A model generated the notes under the pieces. The model saw only the letters and a program-made list of their open reading frames with translations. It was not told the origin of the DNA and did no database searches. A DNA stretch of 55,117 nucleotides, the filler included, from Basidioascus undulatus (Eukaryota): the NCBI GenBank assembly GCA_000826855.1. It is 3 parts of 3 records of this genome, joined end to end, with 100 filler letters (N's around TTAATTAATTAA, not from the genome) between each part and the next. Parts side by side here need not be neighbours in the genome. Positions count along the whole stretch, not along the records: positions 1 to 18,336 come from JTLS01000472.1; 2 more parts are not named here. One strand, written 5' to 3'. The translations under genes and the position numbers were made by a program. Shown here piece by piece: positions 4,796-36,835 of this stretch. How positions within the stretch are numbered: the stretch's first letter is position 1; each line of letters begins with the position of its first letter.

Positions 4796-5405
4796 GGGGG
4801 AGCGCGGGCGGGGCTGGTTGGCGAGGATTGCTTGTTGTAATACTGAACTTCCATCTTGGGACATAGAAGCGGATACCCGATGCACTACCGTTCATTCCCT
4901 ACAAAGGCCTGCCAAGCGCTGCAGTTCCATTCGTCGAAGTGCTGGAGCACTGACCGCAACTGGCTGCTCAGTTGCAGGGAAGCGGGACGCTTACGATGCT
5001 CTCCCATATATGAATAAGGATACTGGAATTGAGCGCGCTACTCTTGCAACACCTGCATTCGTTTCAGTAGGCGCGGTCCTGCCTCGTGCGTTTCTCGCGG
5101 GCTCGCGACTTGTATTCTGGCCGCCAAATCATCTGAAGTCGCAATTGCTAAAGGCACTCGGTCGAATATCTAATAAATGTCGCTTTTCATGCTGATTTTA
5201 GGGAGTGTAGGGTTCAGGGAATGCGGTACAAGTGAGGGAGTGATGGTGAGTAGGTGCGGGAGACACGGAGCGATGCCGAAGCCCAAGATAATACGTGAAG
5301 AAGTGCGAAGTAGAACGGGAATACAGTGTAAGGTCTTAACTAAGCGAAAGCAGGAACAGTTGCGGTAACGGGAAAGAAAGAGGAAAAATTGTCCAGAAAA
5401 ATTGT

Positions 5406-8400
5406 TCAGAACCCGCCGTTGCGGAGAGAGCGACGGTTGGGGCATTGTTGGCAGTAGCGCCCGTCGCGCGAGACCCGGATTCAAGGCAAGGACGGGAGGC
5501 ACGACGGTCAGCCAGCAGAAAAGGGAAGGCAAACGGCTCTGAAGAACGCACCGCACAAGCCGGCCTTGCAGCCCATCGTCGAGCGGCCTCGATCTGCGTG
5601 CAGTCGACGCCGGCGCCCATGGACGCGCAACCGCCGCACGAATCGAGCTCCTGTTGGGTCGAGGCACTCGAACGCGCCCACCTGCGCGCCCTGGACGGGG
5701 CAAGCGGAAAGGCCAGCGGGGCAGTAGAGCGCGTCGCCCGAGAGCGGGTTCTGCTGGTGCTTGCGGATCGCCTTCTGCGAAGCCGGCAGAACGCAGATCT
5801 TCTTCCTGCCGCTGACGATCTCGACGTACGTGTCGTCGCACTCGCAGCCCTTGCCCGCAACGAAGTGGGAATTGGGCTTGGACCGCAGAGCATCGATGGC
5901 TGATTAGGACACGATGCCAGTGGGAACTCGACAAAACGGAAGAACGTACGGCACACTTGGACTTGCACTTGCCATTGTCGTAGTCGTAGCCGTCGGCGCA
6001 CTCGTAGTAGCAGGGGTTCAAGAAGTTCCCCTTGCTAGACGATTGGAGAATACGGGCATCAGCTGAGAAAAACAAGAGCTGCCATCAGTCCGCGTCGAGA
6101 CTCACGCGACAGAGTTTACGACTTGAGGGCAGCACTGGCTCTTGTTGTAGAGGCCGAAGAAAGACTTGTACGGCCCCTGGACTGCGTAGCCGGAGTTGCA
6201 CTGGCACGTGTTGTCGTTGCTGTATACAACGCCCGTTAGCGTACTGAACGTTTGCCATTCGGAACCATCGTTGCGTACAAGTTGTCATCCTCGGTCGGGG
6301 CATTCTCGCACTCGCACTTGCGCGACTGGGTGCCGAACATCTTGCCGGCGTGTTAGACATCGAAACGTAAGCATGCCATATAATTGGGCGCAAGGGCAAG
6401 GCGAGTACGTACCGGGCACTAAACGGAAACACAGTTGTCGCCGTTGGTGGCCTTCTGGTATCCAGCGTCGCAAACGCAGCTCTTCTTGGTCCAGTCCCAA
6501 TGCGAGTTGGTCTGCAGCATGTTTGCGGGGAATCAGTGGACCGCAACGTTGACCCAAAGTGATGGCACCCAGAGGGCACTTCTTCTGGCAGTCATCGCCA
6601 ACGGCGAAGCAGTCGTCGTTGCAGACGCGCTTCTTCTTGTCGGAGTCCCAGTGCTTATTGGTCTGCATTCCGTCCCCCAGCGTCAGAAGTAGCGCATGCG
6701 GACCGCAAGATCGATTTGCACCCACAGGACATGCCGGCCAACGTGACAGGGTGAGCGACGATGACAGTGACTGCATGTCCTCACCGTGAGATCATGCATC
6801 TGCTGCTCCATTCGGGACATGGCGGCTACCATACGTCCCATCGTATCACCCTGAGCGTGTGATCTCCATGCAAGTGCCTGAAGGTGCTCATTGGTGACCT
6901 CAGAGTTCCTTACTAGCCTTGTGAGGAGCATGTGTGTGGTGGCCGACCTGGAGACAGTGCCCACGAGCTTGTTGATGGACTTATCTTCACTCCCAGGCTC
7001 GTCCTTGACAGGATCTTCAGGGACCCTCATGGCCTCAAGCTCGTCAGCGAGTTTGTCCATGGCGGCAATGGAGGCACAAGCATGGCTGTGTGCTCATCCA
7101 TCTGCCATGACTAGTACGGGTGGGCGCCGACTACAGAACCATCCCCTAAGTCGCGAGAGGTGAGCACAGCTTGCATCAGGGGGTACCCGGCGCGATGCCC
7201 AACCCGAAGACCCTGATGCCGTGCATACCCAGAGCCCTTGTTCGCCTCTCGATACCACCAATCACTACCACCTTGCGCTAGCGGCATGGGCGCTGAGTGT
7301 CGTAGGCCCCGAAGAGGGCGCCGTTTCTCCTTACTGGCGCTGTATATGGACGCTGGGAACCTGGGTGTATCCTAACGGGCTGGTGGTCTCGTGGTCGAGA
7401 ATGCAGCCGGTGATAAGCACAGCGACAGTGCAGGTGCGAGAGGACCTGGGGCCGCTGTTGCGAGTACGAGACGAGCTGGTGTCTAGAGGAGCCACGAGGA
7501 GCTCGGTTACCGTGAAGAGATTCGCGCACCACTCTCATACCTTTGATGCCCATGCCACCACAACCAGGGGATGGAACATCGTGCAGACAGGAGAGCAAGA
7601 CAGCAAGGCCGATTACACTCCCCTTAAAGTCTCCCATACTGGGGACATTCAGTTCAACGGCAACCCCGGGGCGTTAGCGGGCGCATTCTCGGCGCTGTCA
7701 GTAACGCTCAGGAAGGCTCTCACCGGCCCCCGTAGCGGTGCCTTCATCAGCACGCTCCGCAAGTTTTAGACATTGATCCCTGACTTGATAGCTGCCCATT
7801 CTGCTAGTACGGCTTGCACTTGCCCCGGCTGTTCATGTAGTAGCCGTCGACGCACTTGCACTTGTTGTCGTCGCTGGAGCGAACAAAATGAGCATGTGTG
7901 CTGCCTATACGGGTTCTGCACATGACCTACAAGTACTGGGCAGTGTCGCCCGTGGGCCGGTTCGGGCAGTAGTAGCAGTTATGCGACTCGCGGTCGTATA
8001 CACGGTTGTTCAGCATGACGCGCCGACAAAGTCAGATGCCATGAGCCAAAGAACAGCATTATTGACTCCGAAAAGAGGACGCACATAGCACTGGACGTTG
8101 CACTGGCGGTTCTGCTTGTCCCGAGAGCACGAACCGTGACCGTTAACGATGGAGTTGCACTATCGCACGAGGGTGAGGGTCCGGACGATGAAGCAGAAAC
8201 CTTGGTGCAACGAACCGTAAAGCCGCCGGAACAATCGGTCATCTCGCAGTAGTCAGGGTAGTCCCAACACTATGTATGATAAAAATCAGCGCTGAACTGC
8301 AGAGAGAAAAGCGAAGGACAGGATTAACTTACGCCGACATCCTTGCGGTTTTTCTCACAGTCCTTCCCAGTCAACTCTCCAACTTTTTCTTATGACACCC

Positions 8401-8782
8401 GCGAACGAATCCGCGTCGATGTCGGCGAGACAGTAGGCATCGTCCTTTCGCCGTCCTGTGACCGCCTCGACTGAGCATGACGTAAAGTAGAGCAATTATG
8501 ATGGGACTTACCTGCCCGTATTTCCCGCCATCGCCCTGCTGCGGACGACCTTGGATGACGCCCTTGTTCGACGCGGCAAGGTGTACGACGGCTGCCGCTC
8601 GCTGTCCTTGTTGGAGCATCCGAACTTGTTGTTGCCGTAGAAGGACCAGGACGTGCGGGTGTGCAGAGTGTAGTTGGGGTACAAGACGGCCGGTAGGTGG
8701 TGAGAGGTCGAGTCGGCGCTGGTGGAAGGGGCGGCCGACAGAGCGGCGAGGCGAGAGCGAAGAGGGCAAGCGGCGAGTGCAT
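5406..8782 (-). pseudogene. Secreted Cys-rich PriA/Cpl1-like protein, frameshifted and interrupted by a 1.07 kb insertion
   Basis: Signal-like start MHSPLALFALA(ALSAAP). Repeated CxC/CPxGA Cys units. C-terminal CPAGLSACPV...FECLD.QQELDSCGGCASMGAGVDCTQIE, typical of basidiomycete PriA/Cpl1. Frame changes are needed near 8745, 8580, 8370-8400 and 5655. The 3' end is approximate. Confidence 0.8.
6732..7805. mobile_element. Unclassified ~1074 bp insertion inside a PriA-like exon
   Basis: Removing 6732-7805, counting the shared A once, restores minus-strand ...AAG TGC AAG CCG TAC TGT CCT GTG GGT GCA (KCKPYCPVGA), matching the gene's other CPxGA units. No TIR or terminal TSD seen. Confidence 0.75.
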
Positions 8783-11606
8783 GTCAGGCTTGATGGATCG
8801 AAGAGAGGTCGACGGGCCGGGAGGGAAACCAAAGACGATTACCTGCGAAGGCGGCGCCACGGTAGCGGAGGGAAGGGGGTGAGGGTAAAGGAAAGAGAGA
8901 CGGGTGAGAAGAGGGGGACAGTCTGGCGATGATAAAAAAGAGCTCGATGCTTATACGCGGCAGATTCGCACCCGGGTTTTCCAAACCATAATTGCAAGCA
9001 GCACGGTTCCTGTTATGCCTCGAATGAGCGACTCCCAGGCGGGGGTACGGAGAGCGGGGATACGGAGGTGCGTGGTCTTCATGAGAAGCCTCGAGGCCGC
9101 AGGGGCCGCATGTGGCAGAGTCAGACACGGGGAGGTCGAGTGGCAGTCGTCCGCAAGCCCGGGGATCGAAAGAAAGATATTCGAAAACAATAATGAAGTA
9201 TGTTCAGCAATAACCAGTCATAGCAACGGAATGGATAGAGATCAAGGCAGCCGAGAAGACGAGCGGGGAAGAGGAACAGGAAGAGACGGCCCTCGCATTC
9301 GTTTATTGAAACATCTTTTATCATCCCACCATGCTCACGTTCGCCTTGCGAGCCACATTTCTGACTGACTGATTCTTCACGCGTGCATGTCAACCGGATG
9401 GCGTCCCTTGCAAAGATCTGTATTGAGCAGCAGCGGATGCTTACTGTGCCCGAAAATGAGTATGAAAGTGGTTTCATGCGGCCCCTACTTATATGGAGAC
9501 ACGACGATTTCGGGTGGATCGGATCTGCTCAGGCTGCAAGGACGGCGGACGCCCATCCCCGAGCATAGGTCCCTCCCGTTTGGCCAGATGTCCCCCTCGT
9601 AATACTCCAAACGTGCACGGTTCTGGCAAATCACTCCCATCTCCTTATCTTAGTGAGTGTCTTCGTCTGCTCCCGGGCGTGTCTAGATAACTATCGTCCA
9701 GTGGGCACAATTGGGGACGCCGAACGTGTCTTTTTCAGAACATCTGTTTTGCATTCGTTGGGCAGCACAGATCAAAGCTGTTCCGAGTGAGGATTGTTGT
9801 TTTGAAGGAAAATTTGAAGAAGACAAAATTCAAACTTCTGGGATTTGGCGGAGGCGTCCCGCTGTGGGTCATCGCAGGCCATTGTAGGTAAGACAGCGTG
9901 GCCTGGTCTCGCCGCGGCTCCACCCGATCACGGCTCCTCTCAACCAGCATCTCTGCGTGGAAGTATGCTGTCGGCACCTTCACATGATACGGAGGGCCTA
10001 ATGCTACAGGAGTGGTACCACCGGACCTCGTGGCGCTCGGGGACAGCGATGCTGCACACGCTGAGTGCGAAGCCCTGACAAGGGAAAGTATGTTCTGGCT
10101 CGCTTACAGGTGAGGACGGTATCCAGAAGGGTCTGGGCCCAGAACTTCTTGTCTATTCAAGCAGGGTGACGGAGCTCAGTCCATTCTCGTAGCATCGCGA
10201 TTCAGCGGAGCCGGGACTGCGTCCAAAGCGAGGGCACTATTCGGCAGCCGCTCGAACCTGGCAATGGTATAGATGGTGAAAGCAAAAAGGCCTCTTTAAT
10301 GAGGGGGGGATTGCTATTTAAGCCCAGGCAGTAAATACGCTGTTATTCGCTTAGGTAGGTGTGAGGATAGGCTGACATGCGCTGCACAATTGCCCAACTC
10401 GCAGTTTGTGGTCGATGGAGCAGCCCACTTTCGGAAAGCACCCTTTATACGATTGCAAGGACATCCAAACACCCCCAGTCCACTTATACTGAGTATCCAG
10501 AGTTAAGGGTGTTCTAGCAATAGAGACTAACAGTACGGTGCCCTCGACATGCATCGTAAAACCAAAGCACTTTGACTGCCAGTGCCACCGGCGTTCGGGA
10601 TCAGGAAAAGCTGGCATTACTGGAGGTAATTACAAAGTAAACTAAAATGCTCTCCAAATTTTCGTGTTCCTGAAGAGTCCTCCCTGTCTGCTCTCGAGAG
10701 CAAGCGCCTGGCTGGTCAGTTGTCACCGCTGAAGCAGCAATACGACCCAGAACCTCTGTCTCACCCTCTGAACAGTCCAGCCTTGAATCTCTCATGAACC
10801 ACCCTAAATCTTATTGCCCGCTTACAGTGGCGTTACCAGTACAAGAACGCGAGCAGAGGAGTGCAATGGATCCCACCTTCGACGTGCGCCTGACGCGATA
10901 TGCAAACGCACAAACCTCTGCCACCTTCAGACCGCTGGGTCGGTATTGCTTTGGAGAATTCCAGAACTCTCGAAACCAGAACCGAGGTGCGACTCTCAGT
11001 CCCGGCAGGGCGCTCACAGTCTGCCGTGTGGCGCCTGATCGCTGCGTAGGATTAATCCTACACAGCGTTGTGCGCATGGTTTGGTCCCACCACTACAGAG
11101 GGTAAAGATGCTCTTATAGCCCCATTAGTGATCATGCAAGGATCTGAAATGAGTTCTGATCGAGAGGTGGGTCATGAAAGGGCCCAAACAGCGTTTTACC
11201 ATCTTCATAAAGCTCTTCAGATTATTTGTCTACCATTCATCTTCACGGCGCCCACGGGCGTCAGAAGCTCAAGGCGCTTTGCTTTGCTTGTCCACCGTGA
11301 CGTACGCAGGACACCTCGATAGGGCGACTCCGGTACGACTTCGAGGAAGTGACACGATGCCATTCCACACAGCAAAGGTAGAAGCAAAACACACCCCCAT
11401 ACAGTGGGCGAGAAAAGGAGCAAAGCATTGTCCATGTCGGCAAGCATAATAAAGTAAAGTAAACACAAAGAAGAAACCGAAGAAAGTGCAGGTATACACA
11501 TGCAGCGCGGGGGCGACCCGCGCCCGTTGCGCTTCGACAGAGCGTTGAGTGTTTTTGTGATAATGCTTGGAACTCATGTGGCGGGTAATGCAATGAAAGG
11601 GAGGGA

Positions 11607-14600
11607 TCACATGCCAAAGAGGTTCGAGACGAGGTAGCATATGCAGCCGAGGAGCTTGATAGCGTTCGTGATGGCGACGAAGATGAGGCTGTAGCCCGCA
11701 GCATCAGCAACGCTGCGGTGTGGAAAAATAATAATTGGCAGGATGAAAAGGCGCACATAAAGAGCATGTAGATCTGGGTCTTGCTTCCCGTGGCACTCTG
11801 GGACAGGACGGAGTCGCCGCCGGTGCCGTAAAGGATGCCGATGACGAGCGCGCCGTTGGTAAGGACCCACGCGAGGAGGACGTTGCTCCGGAAGCTGGCG
11901 AGGTAGTCGGCCTGCTCACGCTCGCGGTCTACGGCTGTCGAGAGCGGCTTGGGGACGGGCATGCGAGTCTGGCAGAAACGACAACGACATGAAGGTCAGT
12001 CTACTAATTGAAAATTCTGCGACCAATGCGCGCAGACTCTGCAAGATGACAACCGACCTTCAGTTTGTGCAAAGCATCAGCGTACGAAATATCGACGTCT
12101 CGCTGCTCGGCGTAGATCTCGATCTCGGCCATGCCGTCCTTCGAAGCCTTGACGACGCCAAGGTCCTTAGGGGCCTGAAGGTCGCCCTTGGTTCCCCAGG
12201 ACAGCTGTGGACCGCGATAGACCATCAGCACCTGGCGCGCACTCTCCATAGAATAAAGGGGCCAAGCGCACGTCGTGGAGGTTCGAGAACGCATAGGTGG
12301 TCAGGACGTTTGTTTGCGACGCGGCGAACAGCAGGTACTGTGGCAGACTCGTGAACAGGTGCCACGGGTCGAGGGACAGCACAGAGGCGACGACCCAGAC
12401 GCCGTAGGTAGCTGCGAGTGTCGGAGGGAACGTAATCAGTTTCGCGCCCAGGAGATGGATACGGGTACAACGCGCACCGATGAGGGAGACGACCATCTGC
12501 GCGTATATCGCGTTGTCCCTGGACTGCTTGGAGACTTGCACCGTGCAAATGATAGCAGCGACAATCATGTCTGGTTTCGCGTCCTCGGATGAGAACACGC
12601 ACGAATCTGGCGATGGGAAGGACGACTCACAGATGGATAACACCGCAAAAGCTATGATGACAGTCGTGTACTTCTTGTGCGACCCTTGTGGCCGGTTCCC
12701 GAGCGCAAACGTGAAGCATGCGACGACGAGGCCGCCGTACACGGACTGCGTGATCGAGTTGAGGATAGAGATCTTGGGGACCTGTACCGAGCACCATCAT
12801 ATCAGTCTCCATGTCGTACCCGACACCTGCTTTTTCTTAAACAAGAGAAGATAACGCACGCCGAAGCTCGGATCTTCCAATGCGCGAGTGAGGATCGAGT
12901 AGAAGAGGAAGAAGTTCGCCTGTGGAAGGGCGCATCAGCATGAGCATGCGTCCTTGCCTTTTCTTGTTCCTTTTTGAAGAAGAAAGCGAGGGAGTGTACG
13001 CACGATAGCGAACCACGAAAAGAGGAGGTTGATGGCGCTGTAGATCGTCTCGACCAGGAGCGCGATCTTGCGCAACGTGCTGTGCCCAGAGCGAAGGACC
13101 TGGCCGGTGTGCCAGAGCGCGTAGACTGCCATCACCATCACCATGTGCATCTTCGCCATCGCGTGAGCTCCATCAGGACGCACTAGCAGCGAAGAAAGAT
13201 CTGCGGCACGCACCCCCACCCATTCATCAGCCACGCGAGGCGTAGGATGGAAGATGAACGGAGGACGACGCACCCGTTCAACCATCTCCTCCGCTGCGAG
13301 ATCAACTCCGGGATCTCCCCGGGGACGTCCGTCTCGCCGACGGCCTCCTTCACATACTTGAGGACCCAGCTCTCGCCCTTCTTCGCCACGAGCTCGAAGC
13401 ACAAAATACTGAACGGTCCTCACGCACCCCAAATCAGCATTCCCTTGCCTTCGTTCGGGCAGACGAAAGAACGAGCGCACCGGTCCTCGGCGAGGTACAT
13501 GTTGCGCGCAAAGACCGACTCGTCGGACGTGTGCAGCTTCTCGCCCTTGAAGTAGCTCGCGAGCGGACCGACACCCATCGCGTCGTTCTTGAGCGCGATG
13601 TACCGGTACGCGGAAAACGCGCCGGGGAGGACCGAGATGTACCCGAACGCGGACTCGGTCGTCTTGTCCAGGATGTTGGACATCTTGTACTCGAAGCTGT
13701 GCGAGCAAGAGCAAGGCGACGTTGGCTTGAGAGAGGGGAAGGGGAGGGGAAAGAGGGAGAGGCGCACTTTTGGGAAGCGACCAGAGGGTTGAGGAGGAGC
13801 CTCCCGCGGCTGCCCACGTCCGCGCGGATCTCGCCGCACGCGCCGCCGACGCTGCTGTTCCTGTCGAATGCCTTCCAGAGGTGATAGAGCGACTTGACGC
13901 CGGGGCGGGTGCCCACGTCGAGGAGCACGCAGACGTTCGGCTGTTGTGTTTCGGTTCATGCTAGTTCAGCCACTGGGGGAGGAAGGGTGTCATGTGGGCG
14001 AAGAACGGACCTGCAAGACGGGACAGAACCCGTTGAAGAACCACCGGTGCGAGTTGATCTTCTTCGCGTTCTTCTCCTTCAGACAGAAGATGATCTATTG
14101 CCCAATCCCGCCCAGCATTAAGCCTTGCCCCCAGCATTAAGCCTCGCCCCCAGAAGCCGTCCCCCCGTTCACGCAGACGCACCTGCGTAGGGACGATCTT
14201 CTTGTCCGGCCCCTTGAATTGCAAGTCGGGGCCGATGCACAAGCTTGTCGTGTACTCGAAAAGATGCGCCTCGACCGGCCTAGATGCACGGACGCAAAGC
14301 GCATCGTGAGCTTCGAAATGGGCGCGTTCGGAGGAAACAGGTTGAGAAAAACACACTTGTCGCCCATCTCGTTCTTGGCCACCCCCTCCTGGTACACGCC
14401 CATGGCCGCCAGGCAATCCAGCACGCGCGGATGACACTTTGTCCGTCCGTCTGCGATGATCACGATAACGACCTGGTTCCGCGTCATGGGCGTGAGGTGC
14501 GCCAAGAAGGGAAGAGGAAGGGCGAAGGGGGACGGACCTTCTTCCAGGAATCGTGACCCCATTTGGAGGAATTCTTGCGCGAGACGAGGTGCGCGATATT

Positions 14601-15903
14601 CTGGTTTGGGGGAGGGGCGAGAATGAGTAAAGTGGGGGCATGGAAGCTGGAAGCATAGGGAAGGCGGACCTTCATCACGCCGTACAGCGTTCGGGTGAAG
14701 AGGATCTCATCTTCGTTGTACCTACCAGCTCGGGCAAGTCAGTTGACATGCGGAGGACAGCACGGGAGGGGGAGTGGGTTGCACGGACATCGTGATACAG
14801 ACGGCACTGTGTGCGTTGGGGATGTGAGCATGGTGTGTACAAATGCATTGGAGGGGTGCGAGAGAGCACACGCACAGCTCCGTCCGCCGACTCGCCAAGC
14901 TCTGCCGGAGCGTGAAGTTCTGCGCCTCAAACTCGTCCGGATCGCAAGTCACCGCCGTGTACCTGTCCTCCAGACACGCACTCTTTCAGCGTGCTGTGGG
15001 ATAAGAGAGGGAGGGTGGAGCACCGCAGGCGCACCTGACGCTCTGCATCTCGGGAAGGTCGCGGTTGAAGAGGACCTTGTCGAGCTCGGAGGGGATGGGG
15101 AGGTCGACGACGAGGTTTCCGGACGTGAGCGGGATACGCTTCTTGGTCTTGTTACGACGGAGGATGCGCTCCTCGGGCGGGCGCCCGAAGTGCTGGGTGT
15201 CGTCCAGGATGGGCGACTCGTAATACTCGGGATTCGCAAGGTCCGCGTCTTTCACGTCTCCCGTGGGTGCGATGAAGCGCTCGGGTGTGCCGGTCGGGGA
15301 GCGGGAGCTGTAGGGGCATGCGGTCTGTCAGCGCGGGAGAGCAGGCGGCGGAGGTGAAAGACGGACCGGAAGGTATCAAAGTTGGGCGCATCGTACGCGG
15401 GCTCGCGGTCGACCGAGTGGAAGCTGGGCGGGCCGGTAGGTTGCGGATACCCAACCGGCACGGGCGTGGACAGTCGGACGTTGTCGTACCCCTCGACGCC
15501 GACGTCGGGGAGCAGGCCCGTGTCGTAAGGCCGCAGGGGCACGTCCTCCTCCGCGTTCGCAAAAGCATCATAGCGCTCTACGGGGTAGCTGTAATCGTAC
15601 CCCGGCGCAGCGTACCCCGGGTACGGCTCGGGGTGATGATGATGGTGTTCATCTGCGAGCGCACCCCTCCATATCAGCTCGCCTTCCAGCCTCAAGACAA
15701 CATGGAGGCTCACGGATGGTATACGCCGGCTCAACTTCGTTACTAGGAGGAGAAGTAGTCCGAGGTTGAGGTGGCGTGGGCAACGGCGGGCGCGAGGGCT
15801 GGCCTTCGCCGTTGGGTGAGGTGGAGCGGACGGAGCCATTGGCGGCGAGGACGACGGGGGGTATGAGCGCGGGGGGCGCCTTGCGCGTCGGAGGAAACAC
15901 CAT
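11607..15903 (-). CDS. Chitin synthase, division 1 (class I-III type, no myosin motor), GT2; multi-exon
   Basis: Motifs [94 protein letters not shown], multi-TM C-terminus ending LVSNLFGM*. The start (MVFPPTRK) is less certain. Confidence 0.95.
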
Positions 15904-16124
15904 CGCAGGTAGAGTGGTCGTCGGCGTCGCGGCCGACGGGACTGATGACAATGGGGAGGAAGGGCGCGGCGGCGGGGAGCGGGCAAGGGGACAAGGGGAG
16001 ATGGAAGGGCAAGAGCGAGCTGTGGGGCACGAACAACAGTAATCGCGGGTCGCGGTCAGAAATCGCGGTCACGTGCGTGTGGAATCTGAGCCGACAGTCC
16101 GTGCGCCCCTCTTGTTTCCGGACC

Positions 16125-18336: not shown

Positions 18337-18436
18337 NNNNNNNNNNNNNNNNNNNNNNNNNNNNNNNNNNNNNNNNNNNNTTAATTAATTAANNNNNNNN
18401 NNNNNNNNNNNNNNNNNNNNNNNNNNNNNNNNNNNN
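18337..18436. other. Assembly gap or contig linker (N-run + TTAATTAATTAA + N-run)
   Basis: Artificial 12-mer with stops in all six frames inside Ns; unrelated genes are cut on each side. Confidence 0.97.
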
Positions 18437-36735: not shown

Positions 36736-36835
36736 NNNNNNNNNNNNNNNNNNNNNNNNNNNNNNNNNNNNNNNNNNNNTTAATTAATTAANNNNNNNNN
36801 NNNNNNNNNNNNNNNNNNNNNNNNNNNNNNNNNNN
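36736..36835. other. Assembly gap or contig linker (N-run + TTAATTAATTAA + N-run)
   Basis: Same artificial linker as at 18337. Confidence 0.97.

Follow-up and report, generated by a model that had tools for sequence, protein, structure and literature searches.

An Inserted Segment with Its Own Spliced Transcript in a Decaying Cysteine-Rich Gene of Basidioascus undulatus

Introduction

How does a segment of about 1 kb, carrying open reading frames (ORFs) of its own, come to lie inside an exon of a gene for a secreted protein, only a few nucleotides before the exon ends? The question is raised by a locus in a stretch of 55,117 nt from Basidioascus undulatus (GenBank assembly GCA_000826855.1; the whole stretch, filler included, is hereafter called the window), in which a minus-strand gene for a cysteine-rich protein of the CPL1-like/PriA kind is interrupted at positions 6732-7806. 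A sequence-only reading of the window had proposed that the interrupting segment is intronless foreign DNA, possibly the cDNA of a fungal RNA virus, patched into the exon by end joining. We show here that the segment divides a single host exon with an exact junction, that it is transcribed and spliced, and that the gene around it is a transcribed pseudogene. As to its origin, we lean, with somewhat better than even confidence, toward a random gene-bearing fragment of cellular, fungal-type style that was ligated by end joining into a break in the host gene.

Results

Presence of the Segment in Sequencing Runs

The segment occurs in three public runs from two samples, here called X1 (a 2014 run), X2 (a 2025 run from another study), and X3 (the same sample as X2); among the public runs searched, none from other strains or species holds it. 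This DNA may stem from either X1 or X2, and the two therefore do not count as independent strains. In each of them a single Logan contig, 15 kb or 72 kb long, runs through the whole of 5200-9000 with 0 gaps and so crosses both edges of the insert. Since they are assemblies from reads that run gapless over both junctions, a misjoin is unlikely and the split can be taken as real.

The third run is of a different nature. X3 is 16 Mb in size and labeled 'DNA?', and no run holding the segment is recorded as RNA; its contigs nevertheless skip 56-73 nt at seven joints, each with canonical ends, and none of these is found in the DNA assemblies of X1 and X2. Such canonical splice joints are what a transcriptome of the X2 sample would show, and we infer that X3 is RNA-derived. 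It leaves 6724-6977 and 7486-7993 uncovered, and such gaps in contig cover prove nothing.

One Exon Cut near Its End

The inserted segment (6732-7806, neither strand assigned) measures 1,075 nt and has a GC content of 0.58, with a T at both edges producing an ambiguity of 1 nt; the proposal of a segment of about 1.07 kb splitting a minus-strand exon with a 1-nt overlap is confirmed by these limits. On the gene strand, with slashes marking the boundaries, the sequence reads ...GGC AAG TGC AAG CCG TAC / TAG CAG AAT ... GGC CGG CA / TGT CCT / GTGGGT, the insert thus running from TAGCAG to CCGGCA. Excision of 6732-7806 yields a minus-strand exon ...DDNKCKCVDGYYMNSRGKCKPY/CP, followed at once by the 5' splice site GTGGGT. 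The upstream part of this exon lies at 7807-7873 (minus strand) and ends in ...DDNKCKCVDGYYMNSRGKCKPY according to its three-frame translation, its start being predicted just after ...CTCCAG. The final 6 nt of the exon, TGTCCT for the residues CP, lie at 6726-6731 (minus) and fit the C-x3-C-P/GT pattern of other modules of the protein. Directly after CP comes a predicted 63-nt intron at 6663-6725 (minus), GTGGGT...CTGAC...TGCAG, which is in phase and aligns as a homologue of the stretch following the next module; among the X3 contigs, no transcript shows its removal. It follows that the rejoined frame, previously read as KCKPY/CPVGA, holds as far as KCKPY/CP, the residues VGA being replaced by the predicted intron that begins with GTGGGT.

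The pattern C-x3-C-[P/A]/GT is repeated at two further boundaries between modules, namely CQKK-CP, after which the intron-homologous stretch starts with CTGGGT, and CKSK-CA/GTACGT, and a third boundary, CVSV-TAG-CP/GTACGT, presents the same pattern plus an extra TAG. At the insert the C-x3-C-P motif is split in phase, one portion standing on either side, with zero host bases lost, and for this reason a single exon interrupted 6 nt short of its end is a much better description than two genes. The two-gene alternative merits attention all the same, because the first triplet of the insert on the gene strand, TAG at 7804-7806, is the codon right after KCKPY. Two tandem cysteine-rich genes could then flank a small native orphan gene, without any insertion, the upstream gene ending at that TAG; the absence of X3 contigs across either junction and the separate transcript of the segment (see below) would agree with such an arrangement. 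Yet the downstream part has neither start codon nor signal peptide and opens with the last 6 nt of an exon (CP) and a 5' splice site, the upstream part is devoid of the C-terminal CPL1-like domain, and two separate genes would have to share a motif that is divided exactly between them. Given these features we regard the arrangement as improbable.

The Host Is a Transcribed Pseudogene

The host gene, delimited by the cover of X3 contigs, extends over 5200-8865 on the minus strand and encodes a cysteine-rich secreted protein whose body consists of Cys-rich modules. A C-terminal CPL1-like domain (PF21671) is encoded at 5543-5662 (minus), matching profile positions 5-45 of 60 with an E-value of 5.6e-9 and 36.4 bits against a cutoff of 27.4; on this basis the PriA-like label given earlier to the host is reasonable. 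The domain lies, however, in a frame that is shifted with respect to the Cys-rich frame on both sides of it, and no Pfam family is obtained from the flanking frame. The X3 contig over the domain has 0 gaps. Position 5455, also within the gene, is T in the window and G in X1, X2, and X3, a mismatch that reflects either an assembly error or a difference from the sequenced isolate.

Six host introns are spliced in X3 on the minus strand (5877-5949, 6035-6105, 6220-6278, 6341-6412, 8160-8215, and 8456-8511). A further intron-homologous stretch of 61 nt at 6514-6574 (minus) has CTGGGT in place of GTGGGT and is retained in X3, where 6413-6612 is unspliced, with the consequence that the frame is shifted. 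In addition, the spliced host mRNA contains an in-frame TAG at 6419-6421 (minus), within NCVSV-TAG-CP/intron, the splice from 6413 to 6340 being seen in X3. Other apparent frame changes occur in host exons 1 and 2, and an unspliced intron-like stretch containing a stop is found near 8010-8090. The insert and the other lesions leave the host with no intact frame from signal peptide to C-terminal domain. The host is therefore a transcribed pseudogene whose frame is broken beyond the insert as well, by the dead 5' splice site, the in-frame TAG, and the shifted frame of the CPL1-like domain. The G+C at third codon positions (GC3) of host exons is still 0.79-0.89, and the decay is therefore probably recent. 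Among longer proteins with the host C-terminal exon, which could have provided orthologues and possibly an empty site, 0 of 174 candidates scored.

Transcription and Splicing within the Insert

A 303-nt contig of X3 joins 7006-7159 to 7233-7381 and skips 7160-7232, all on the plus strand, so that the insert is transcribed and spliced. Its first exon, 7006-7159, is a minimum extent set by the end of the contig and overlaps the start of the minus-strand ORF described below. The spliceosomal intron at 7160-7232 is 73 nt long, reads GTGAGC...CTGAT...CAG with GT..AG ends, and has a length that the six host introns, at 56-73 nt, also reach; the insert is accordingly not intronless, nor free of host-like introns, as had been thought. 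The second exon, 7233-7769, contains an open frame of 178 codons with its stop TAG at 7767-7769, X3 covering it only to 7381.

Both of the divergent ORFs formerly described in the insert do exist. The one on the plus strand, previously given as 7221-7769 with 182 aa, begins with GTG, and the spliced transcript offers it no ATG in frame upstream of MQPVIS. Those ATGs that exon 1 contains lie in another frame, which closes some 16 codons beyond the splice. When 1.84 billion representative proteins were searched exhaustively by phmmer with the plus-strand frame, a single match was returned at E <= 0.001, with E 9.6e-5, to a protein that we call P0001. This is a singleton of 292 aa known from Logan alone, on a contig of 3,902 nt. 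The alignment consists of two collinear stretches, including GAFISTL near both C-termini, and the frame in the insert, a distant and shorter relative, lacks about 65 middle residues of P0001. The plus-strand ORF probably makes no full protein, since it has no start codon in frame and falls short of P0001, the one relative known for it, in length.

Further searches did not enlarge this small family. P0001 has no Pfam family; a profile of the plus-strand ORF and P0001 retrieved P0001 alone among 8,000 scored candidates; a scan of JGI metagenomes gave no relatives, and Atlas no usable match; three scans of IMG/VR, the one with the minus-strand ORF among them, provided no relative, one match of 21 aa being read as chance. 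Searches of PDB sequences reached only E >= 0.37. The AlphaFold model of P0001 has a pLDDT of 33.5 and is too poor for use, and a possible likeness of P0001 to the repeats of TATA-binding protein was borne out neither by Pfam at E <= 5 nor by PDB sequences.

The minus-strand ORF, MDKLADELEAM..., starts from an ATG at 7060 and occupies 6732-7060 of the insert. It is indeed cut by the left junction, for its frame crosses the edge and runs on for 16 codons into host sequence, with its stop at 6683-6685. A search for relatives of near length gave two candidates, none of which scored, longer proteins not being searched; the best score in Atlas was 0.79, below the useful range, the IMG/VR and JGI metagenome scans found nothing, and the best match among PDB sequences had E 3.4. 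Its model is helical with a low confidence (pLDDT 53.5), too weak to sustain the coiled-coil likeness attributed to the ORF.

Could the segment be the cDNA of an uncharacterized mycovirus, captured at a break and surviving as an endogenous viral element, with P0001 as an exogenous relative and the intron as a product of cryptic splicing? Several observations can be counted on this side: P0001 is that singleton on a 3,902-nt Logan contig, the weak alignment with it continues into the intron stretch (query residues 8-23), the GC3 of the insert is below that of most host genes, and no named protein turned up as a relative of the segment. A size of about 3.9 kb is, moreover, compatible with small RNA virus genomes. 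Nevertheless, no viral family emerges from Pfam, IMG/VR, or PDB sequences, and Rfam is empty as well; a spliced intron with host-typical size and signals would be expected to be missing from viral cDNA, unless the splicing is cryptic; the ORFs diverge head-to-head from the middle of the segment; and the plus-strand ORF has no in-frame start codon. Linear ambisense segments have a convergent ORF layout, unlike that of the insert. A viral element thus appears unlikely, and the cDNA of a fungal RNA virus that had been proposed from the sequence has no support in these searches, the intron of host size speaking against it. The same low probability applies to the wider statement that an undescribed mycovirus, or some other extrachromosomal element of fungi, left the segment behind as a relic, P0001 being its only known living relative. 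The host-sized spliced intron points instead to a cellular, fungal-type source rather than to RNA-virus cDNA.

Ends, Composition, and Copies of the Insert

A repeat search over 6600-7950 detected neither terminal inverted repeats (TIRs) nor a target-site duplication (TSD) of the insert, and no poly-A or A-run is visible in its sequence, in keeping with what had been stated about all three. An exact 9-nt repeat, CTAGTACGG, is present at 7111 and 7804, but was discarded as a signal because it is about the chance expectation in 1.35 kb. Within the 55-kb window the insert has no second copy, blastn and tblastx giving the self-match only; the unbroken 15-kb and 72-kb contigs through the insert are a weak hint that no near-identical second copy exists in the genome. 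All five insert ORFs tested are without Pfam families at E <= 1, hence also without a transposase, reverse transcriptase, or Helitron-type domain, and the earlier impression that the ORFs resemble neither of the first two is upheld. Rfam has 0 matches at E <= 1, ribozymes included, over 6400-8100. The GC content is similar to that of the flanks, and the indices suggest no signature of repeat-induced point mutation in the insert. GC3 is 0.62-0.68 in the insert ORFs (0.68 in the plus-strand open frame), compared with 0.74-0.89 in host exons and four neighboring ORFs with clear Pfam hits; other neighboring ORFs go down to 0.55-0.67.

These properties bear on yet another possibility, that the segment is the remnant of an unknown low-copy mobile element preferring the module boundary. 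The idea arises from the TAG at 6419-6421, which breaks the C-x3-C-P spacing at a module position identical to that of the TAG with which the insert opens one module pair earlier, so that it might be the footprint of a second, lost copy. The two TAGs may instead represent a mutated fourth codon shared by two like modules, or chance. Apart from this, the element would have to be one without TIRs, TSD, or terminal motif, with none of the three enzyme domains just mentioned, and present once within the window; and since its edge cuts the minus-strand ORF, a whole element would not end there. We consider a mobile element very unlikely. Two defined kinds of element were also discarded. A Helitron is evoked by CTAG/T at one edge, yet the segment lacks both a 5' TC and a 3' hairpin, and taking it out at those limits breaks the host frame; for a solo long terminal repeat (LTR), the ends TA...CA are not accompanied by a TSD.

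Other Features of the Window

The window has a fungal look, with short introns and a GC content of 0.5-0.7. Eight of its 83 ORFs of at least 150 aa have a Pfam family at E <= 1e-5, the matches including gamma-glutamyltranspeptidase, chitin synthase, a PLP-dependent enzyme, a protein kinase, a PARG-type hydrolase, and an electron transfer flavoprotein. The chitin synthase domain matches at 12938-16055 (minus) come in short pieces and different frames (profile positions 38-88 and 137-163 of 163), which could mean introns or additional frame breaks. The stretches 18337-18436 and 36736-36835 each consist of two runs of 44 N with 12 bases between them, and were read as masked or withheld sequence.

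Discussion

The question posed at the outset can be answered at two levels of confidence. That a host exon is split, with the junction anatomy given above, that the insert has an intron and a transcript, and that the host carries lesions besides the insert are matters of observation. The manner in which the segment arrived is less certain, and the explanation that we find moderately probable is the capture of a gene-bearing fragment at a break. A double-strand break would have occurred 6 nt before the end of the host exon, and a DNA fragment, coming from elsewhere in this genome or from a foreign source, would have been joined into it by non-homologous end joining. This fragment would have brought along a head-to-head pair of transcription units, of which the minus-strand ORF would have lost its 3' end at the junction, and the plus-strand unit would still be transcribed and spliced, probably without producing a full protein. 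As the host is now a transcribed pseudogene, the insert would either have killed the gene itself or be just one of several lesions and neutral.

What should such an event leave behind? The capture of filler DNA at double-strand breaks is described in yeast and vertebrates, the fillers including linear fragments, mitochondrial DNA, and retrotransposon cDNA in yeast and repair-mediated duplications in vertebrates, as far as these accounts relate (PMC1976456, PMC11372161, PMC2671141, PMC2820518). The hallmarks of such fillers are found here in the 1-nt overlap (T), the missing TSD, and the arbitrary ends, the minus-strand ORF being cut and the plus-strand stop lying 37 nt from the right edge of the insert; overall, the locus shares with filler-DNA capture a single insertion with 0-1 nt of microhomology, no TSD or TIRs, and no enzyme of its own. 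Unlike the described fillers, the insert is not mitochondrial in style, given its GC of 0.58 and the lack of Rfam matches, and has no retrotransposon domain; also, the insertion event is here deduced from sequence. The proposal that foreign DNA was patched in by end joining agrees with the exact junction, arbitrary ends, cut minus-strand ORF, absence of TIRs and TSD, lack of host loss, and single occurrence in the window. The GC3 of the insert, lower than in host exons and neighbors with Pfam hits, is a mild deviation by which foreign origin is neither shown nor excluded.

This mild deviation is among the points that weigh against capture of a cellular fragment. No source copy of the insert was found, the copy search covering the 55-kb window. 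The intron in the insert is documented by one 303-nt contig, and its splicing could be cryptic. The sole relative of the plus-strand ORF is known from a Logan contig alone, which is unusual for an ordinary fungal gene. Lastly, the capture of a fragment does not account for the TAG at the homologous place in the later module.

Comparison with other systems helps in placing the locus. Non-retroviral endogenous viral elements are reported in fungi and other eukaryotes, according to at least part of the literature (PMC10636211, PMC10640383). The insert resembles them in that its coding sequence looks foreign, its ORF is degenerate, and it sits within chromosomal DNA of the host; they are usually recognized by homology of RNA-dependent RNA polymerase (RdRp) or capsid, however, and the insert differs in having a spliced intron and no viral homologue. 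Older fungal cases concern elements derived from totiviruses and partitiviruses. Introner-like elements, too, come to mind for insertions of about 1 kb near exon-intron boundaries, and the insert, with its length of about 1 kb and its position close to such a boundary of a fungal gene, is similar in this respect. It departs from them in having ends without usable splice sites (on the gene strand, 5' GTACTA, and a 3' edge GGCA with no AG); splicing to the next AG breaks the frame, no X3 contig joins across the insert, and it is single copy in the window. With regard to the host, a known secreted Cys-rich protein of the CPL1-like/PriA type is Cpl1 of Cryptococcus, as presented in a preprint (bioRxiv 10.1101/2021.09.02.458767). 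The C-terminal PF21671 domain above the Pfam cutoff and the body of Cys-rich modules are features that the host shares with proteins of this type, from which it differs in being a broken copy, interrupted by the insert and carrying a dead splice site, a stop in frame, and shifts of the reading frame.

If a gene-bearing fragment was indeed captured at a break, the locus would constitute a clean natural instance of filler-DNA capture in a filamentous-type fungal genome, with a junction exact to the base and with splicing still going on in the transcription unit that was captured. It would be useful as a case, though not as a system of a new kind, and the gene that holds it is dead already. The significance would be different if the contig bearing P0001 were viral, for then the segment would tie an orphan protein family to both a virus and a host. 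Were the segment truly a viral or extrachromosomal relic, the TAG at the homologous site of the later module could mark a second, lost integration, and the plus-strand ORF would be the first genomic 'fossil' of the P0001 lineage.

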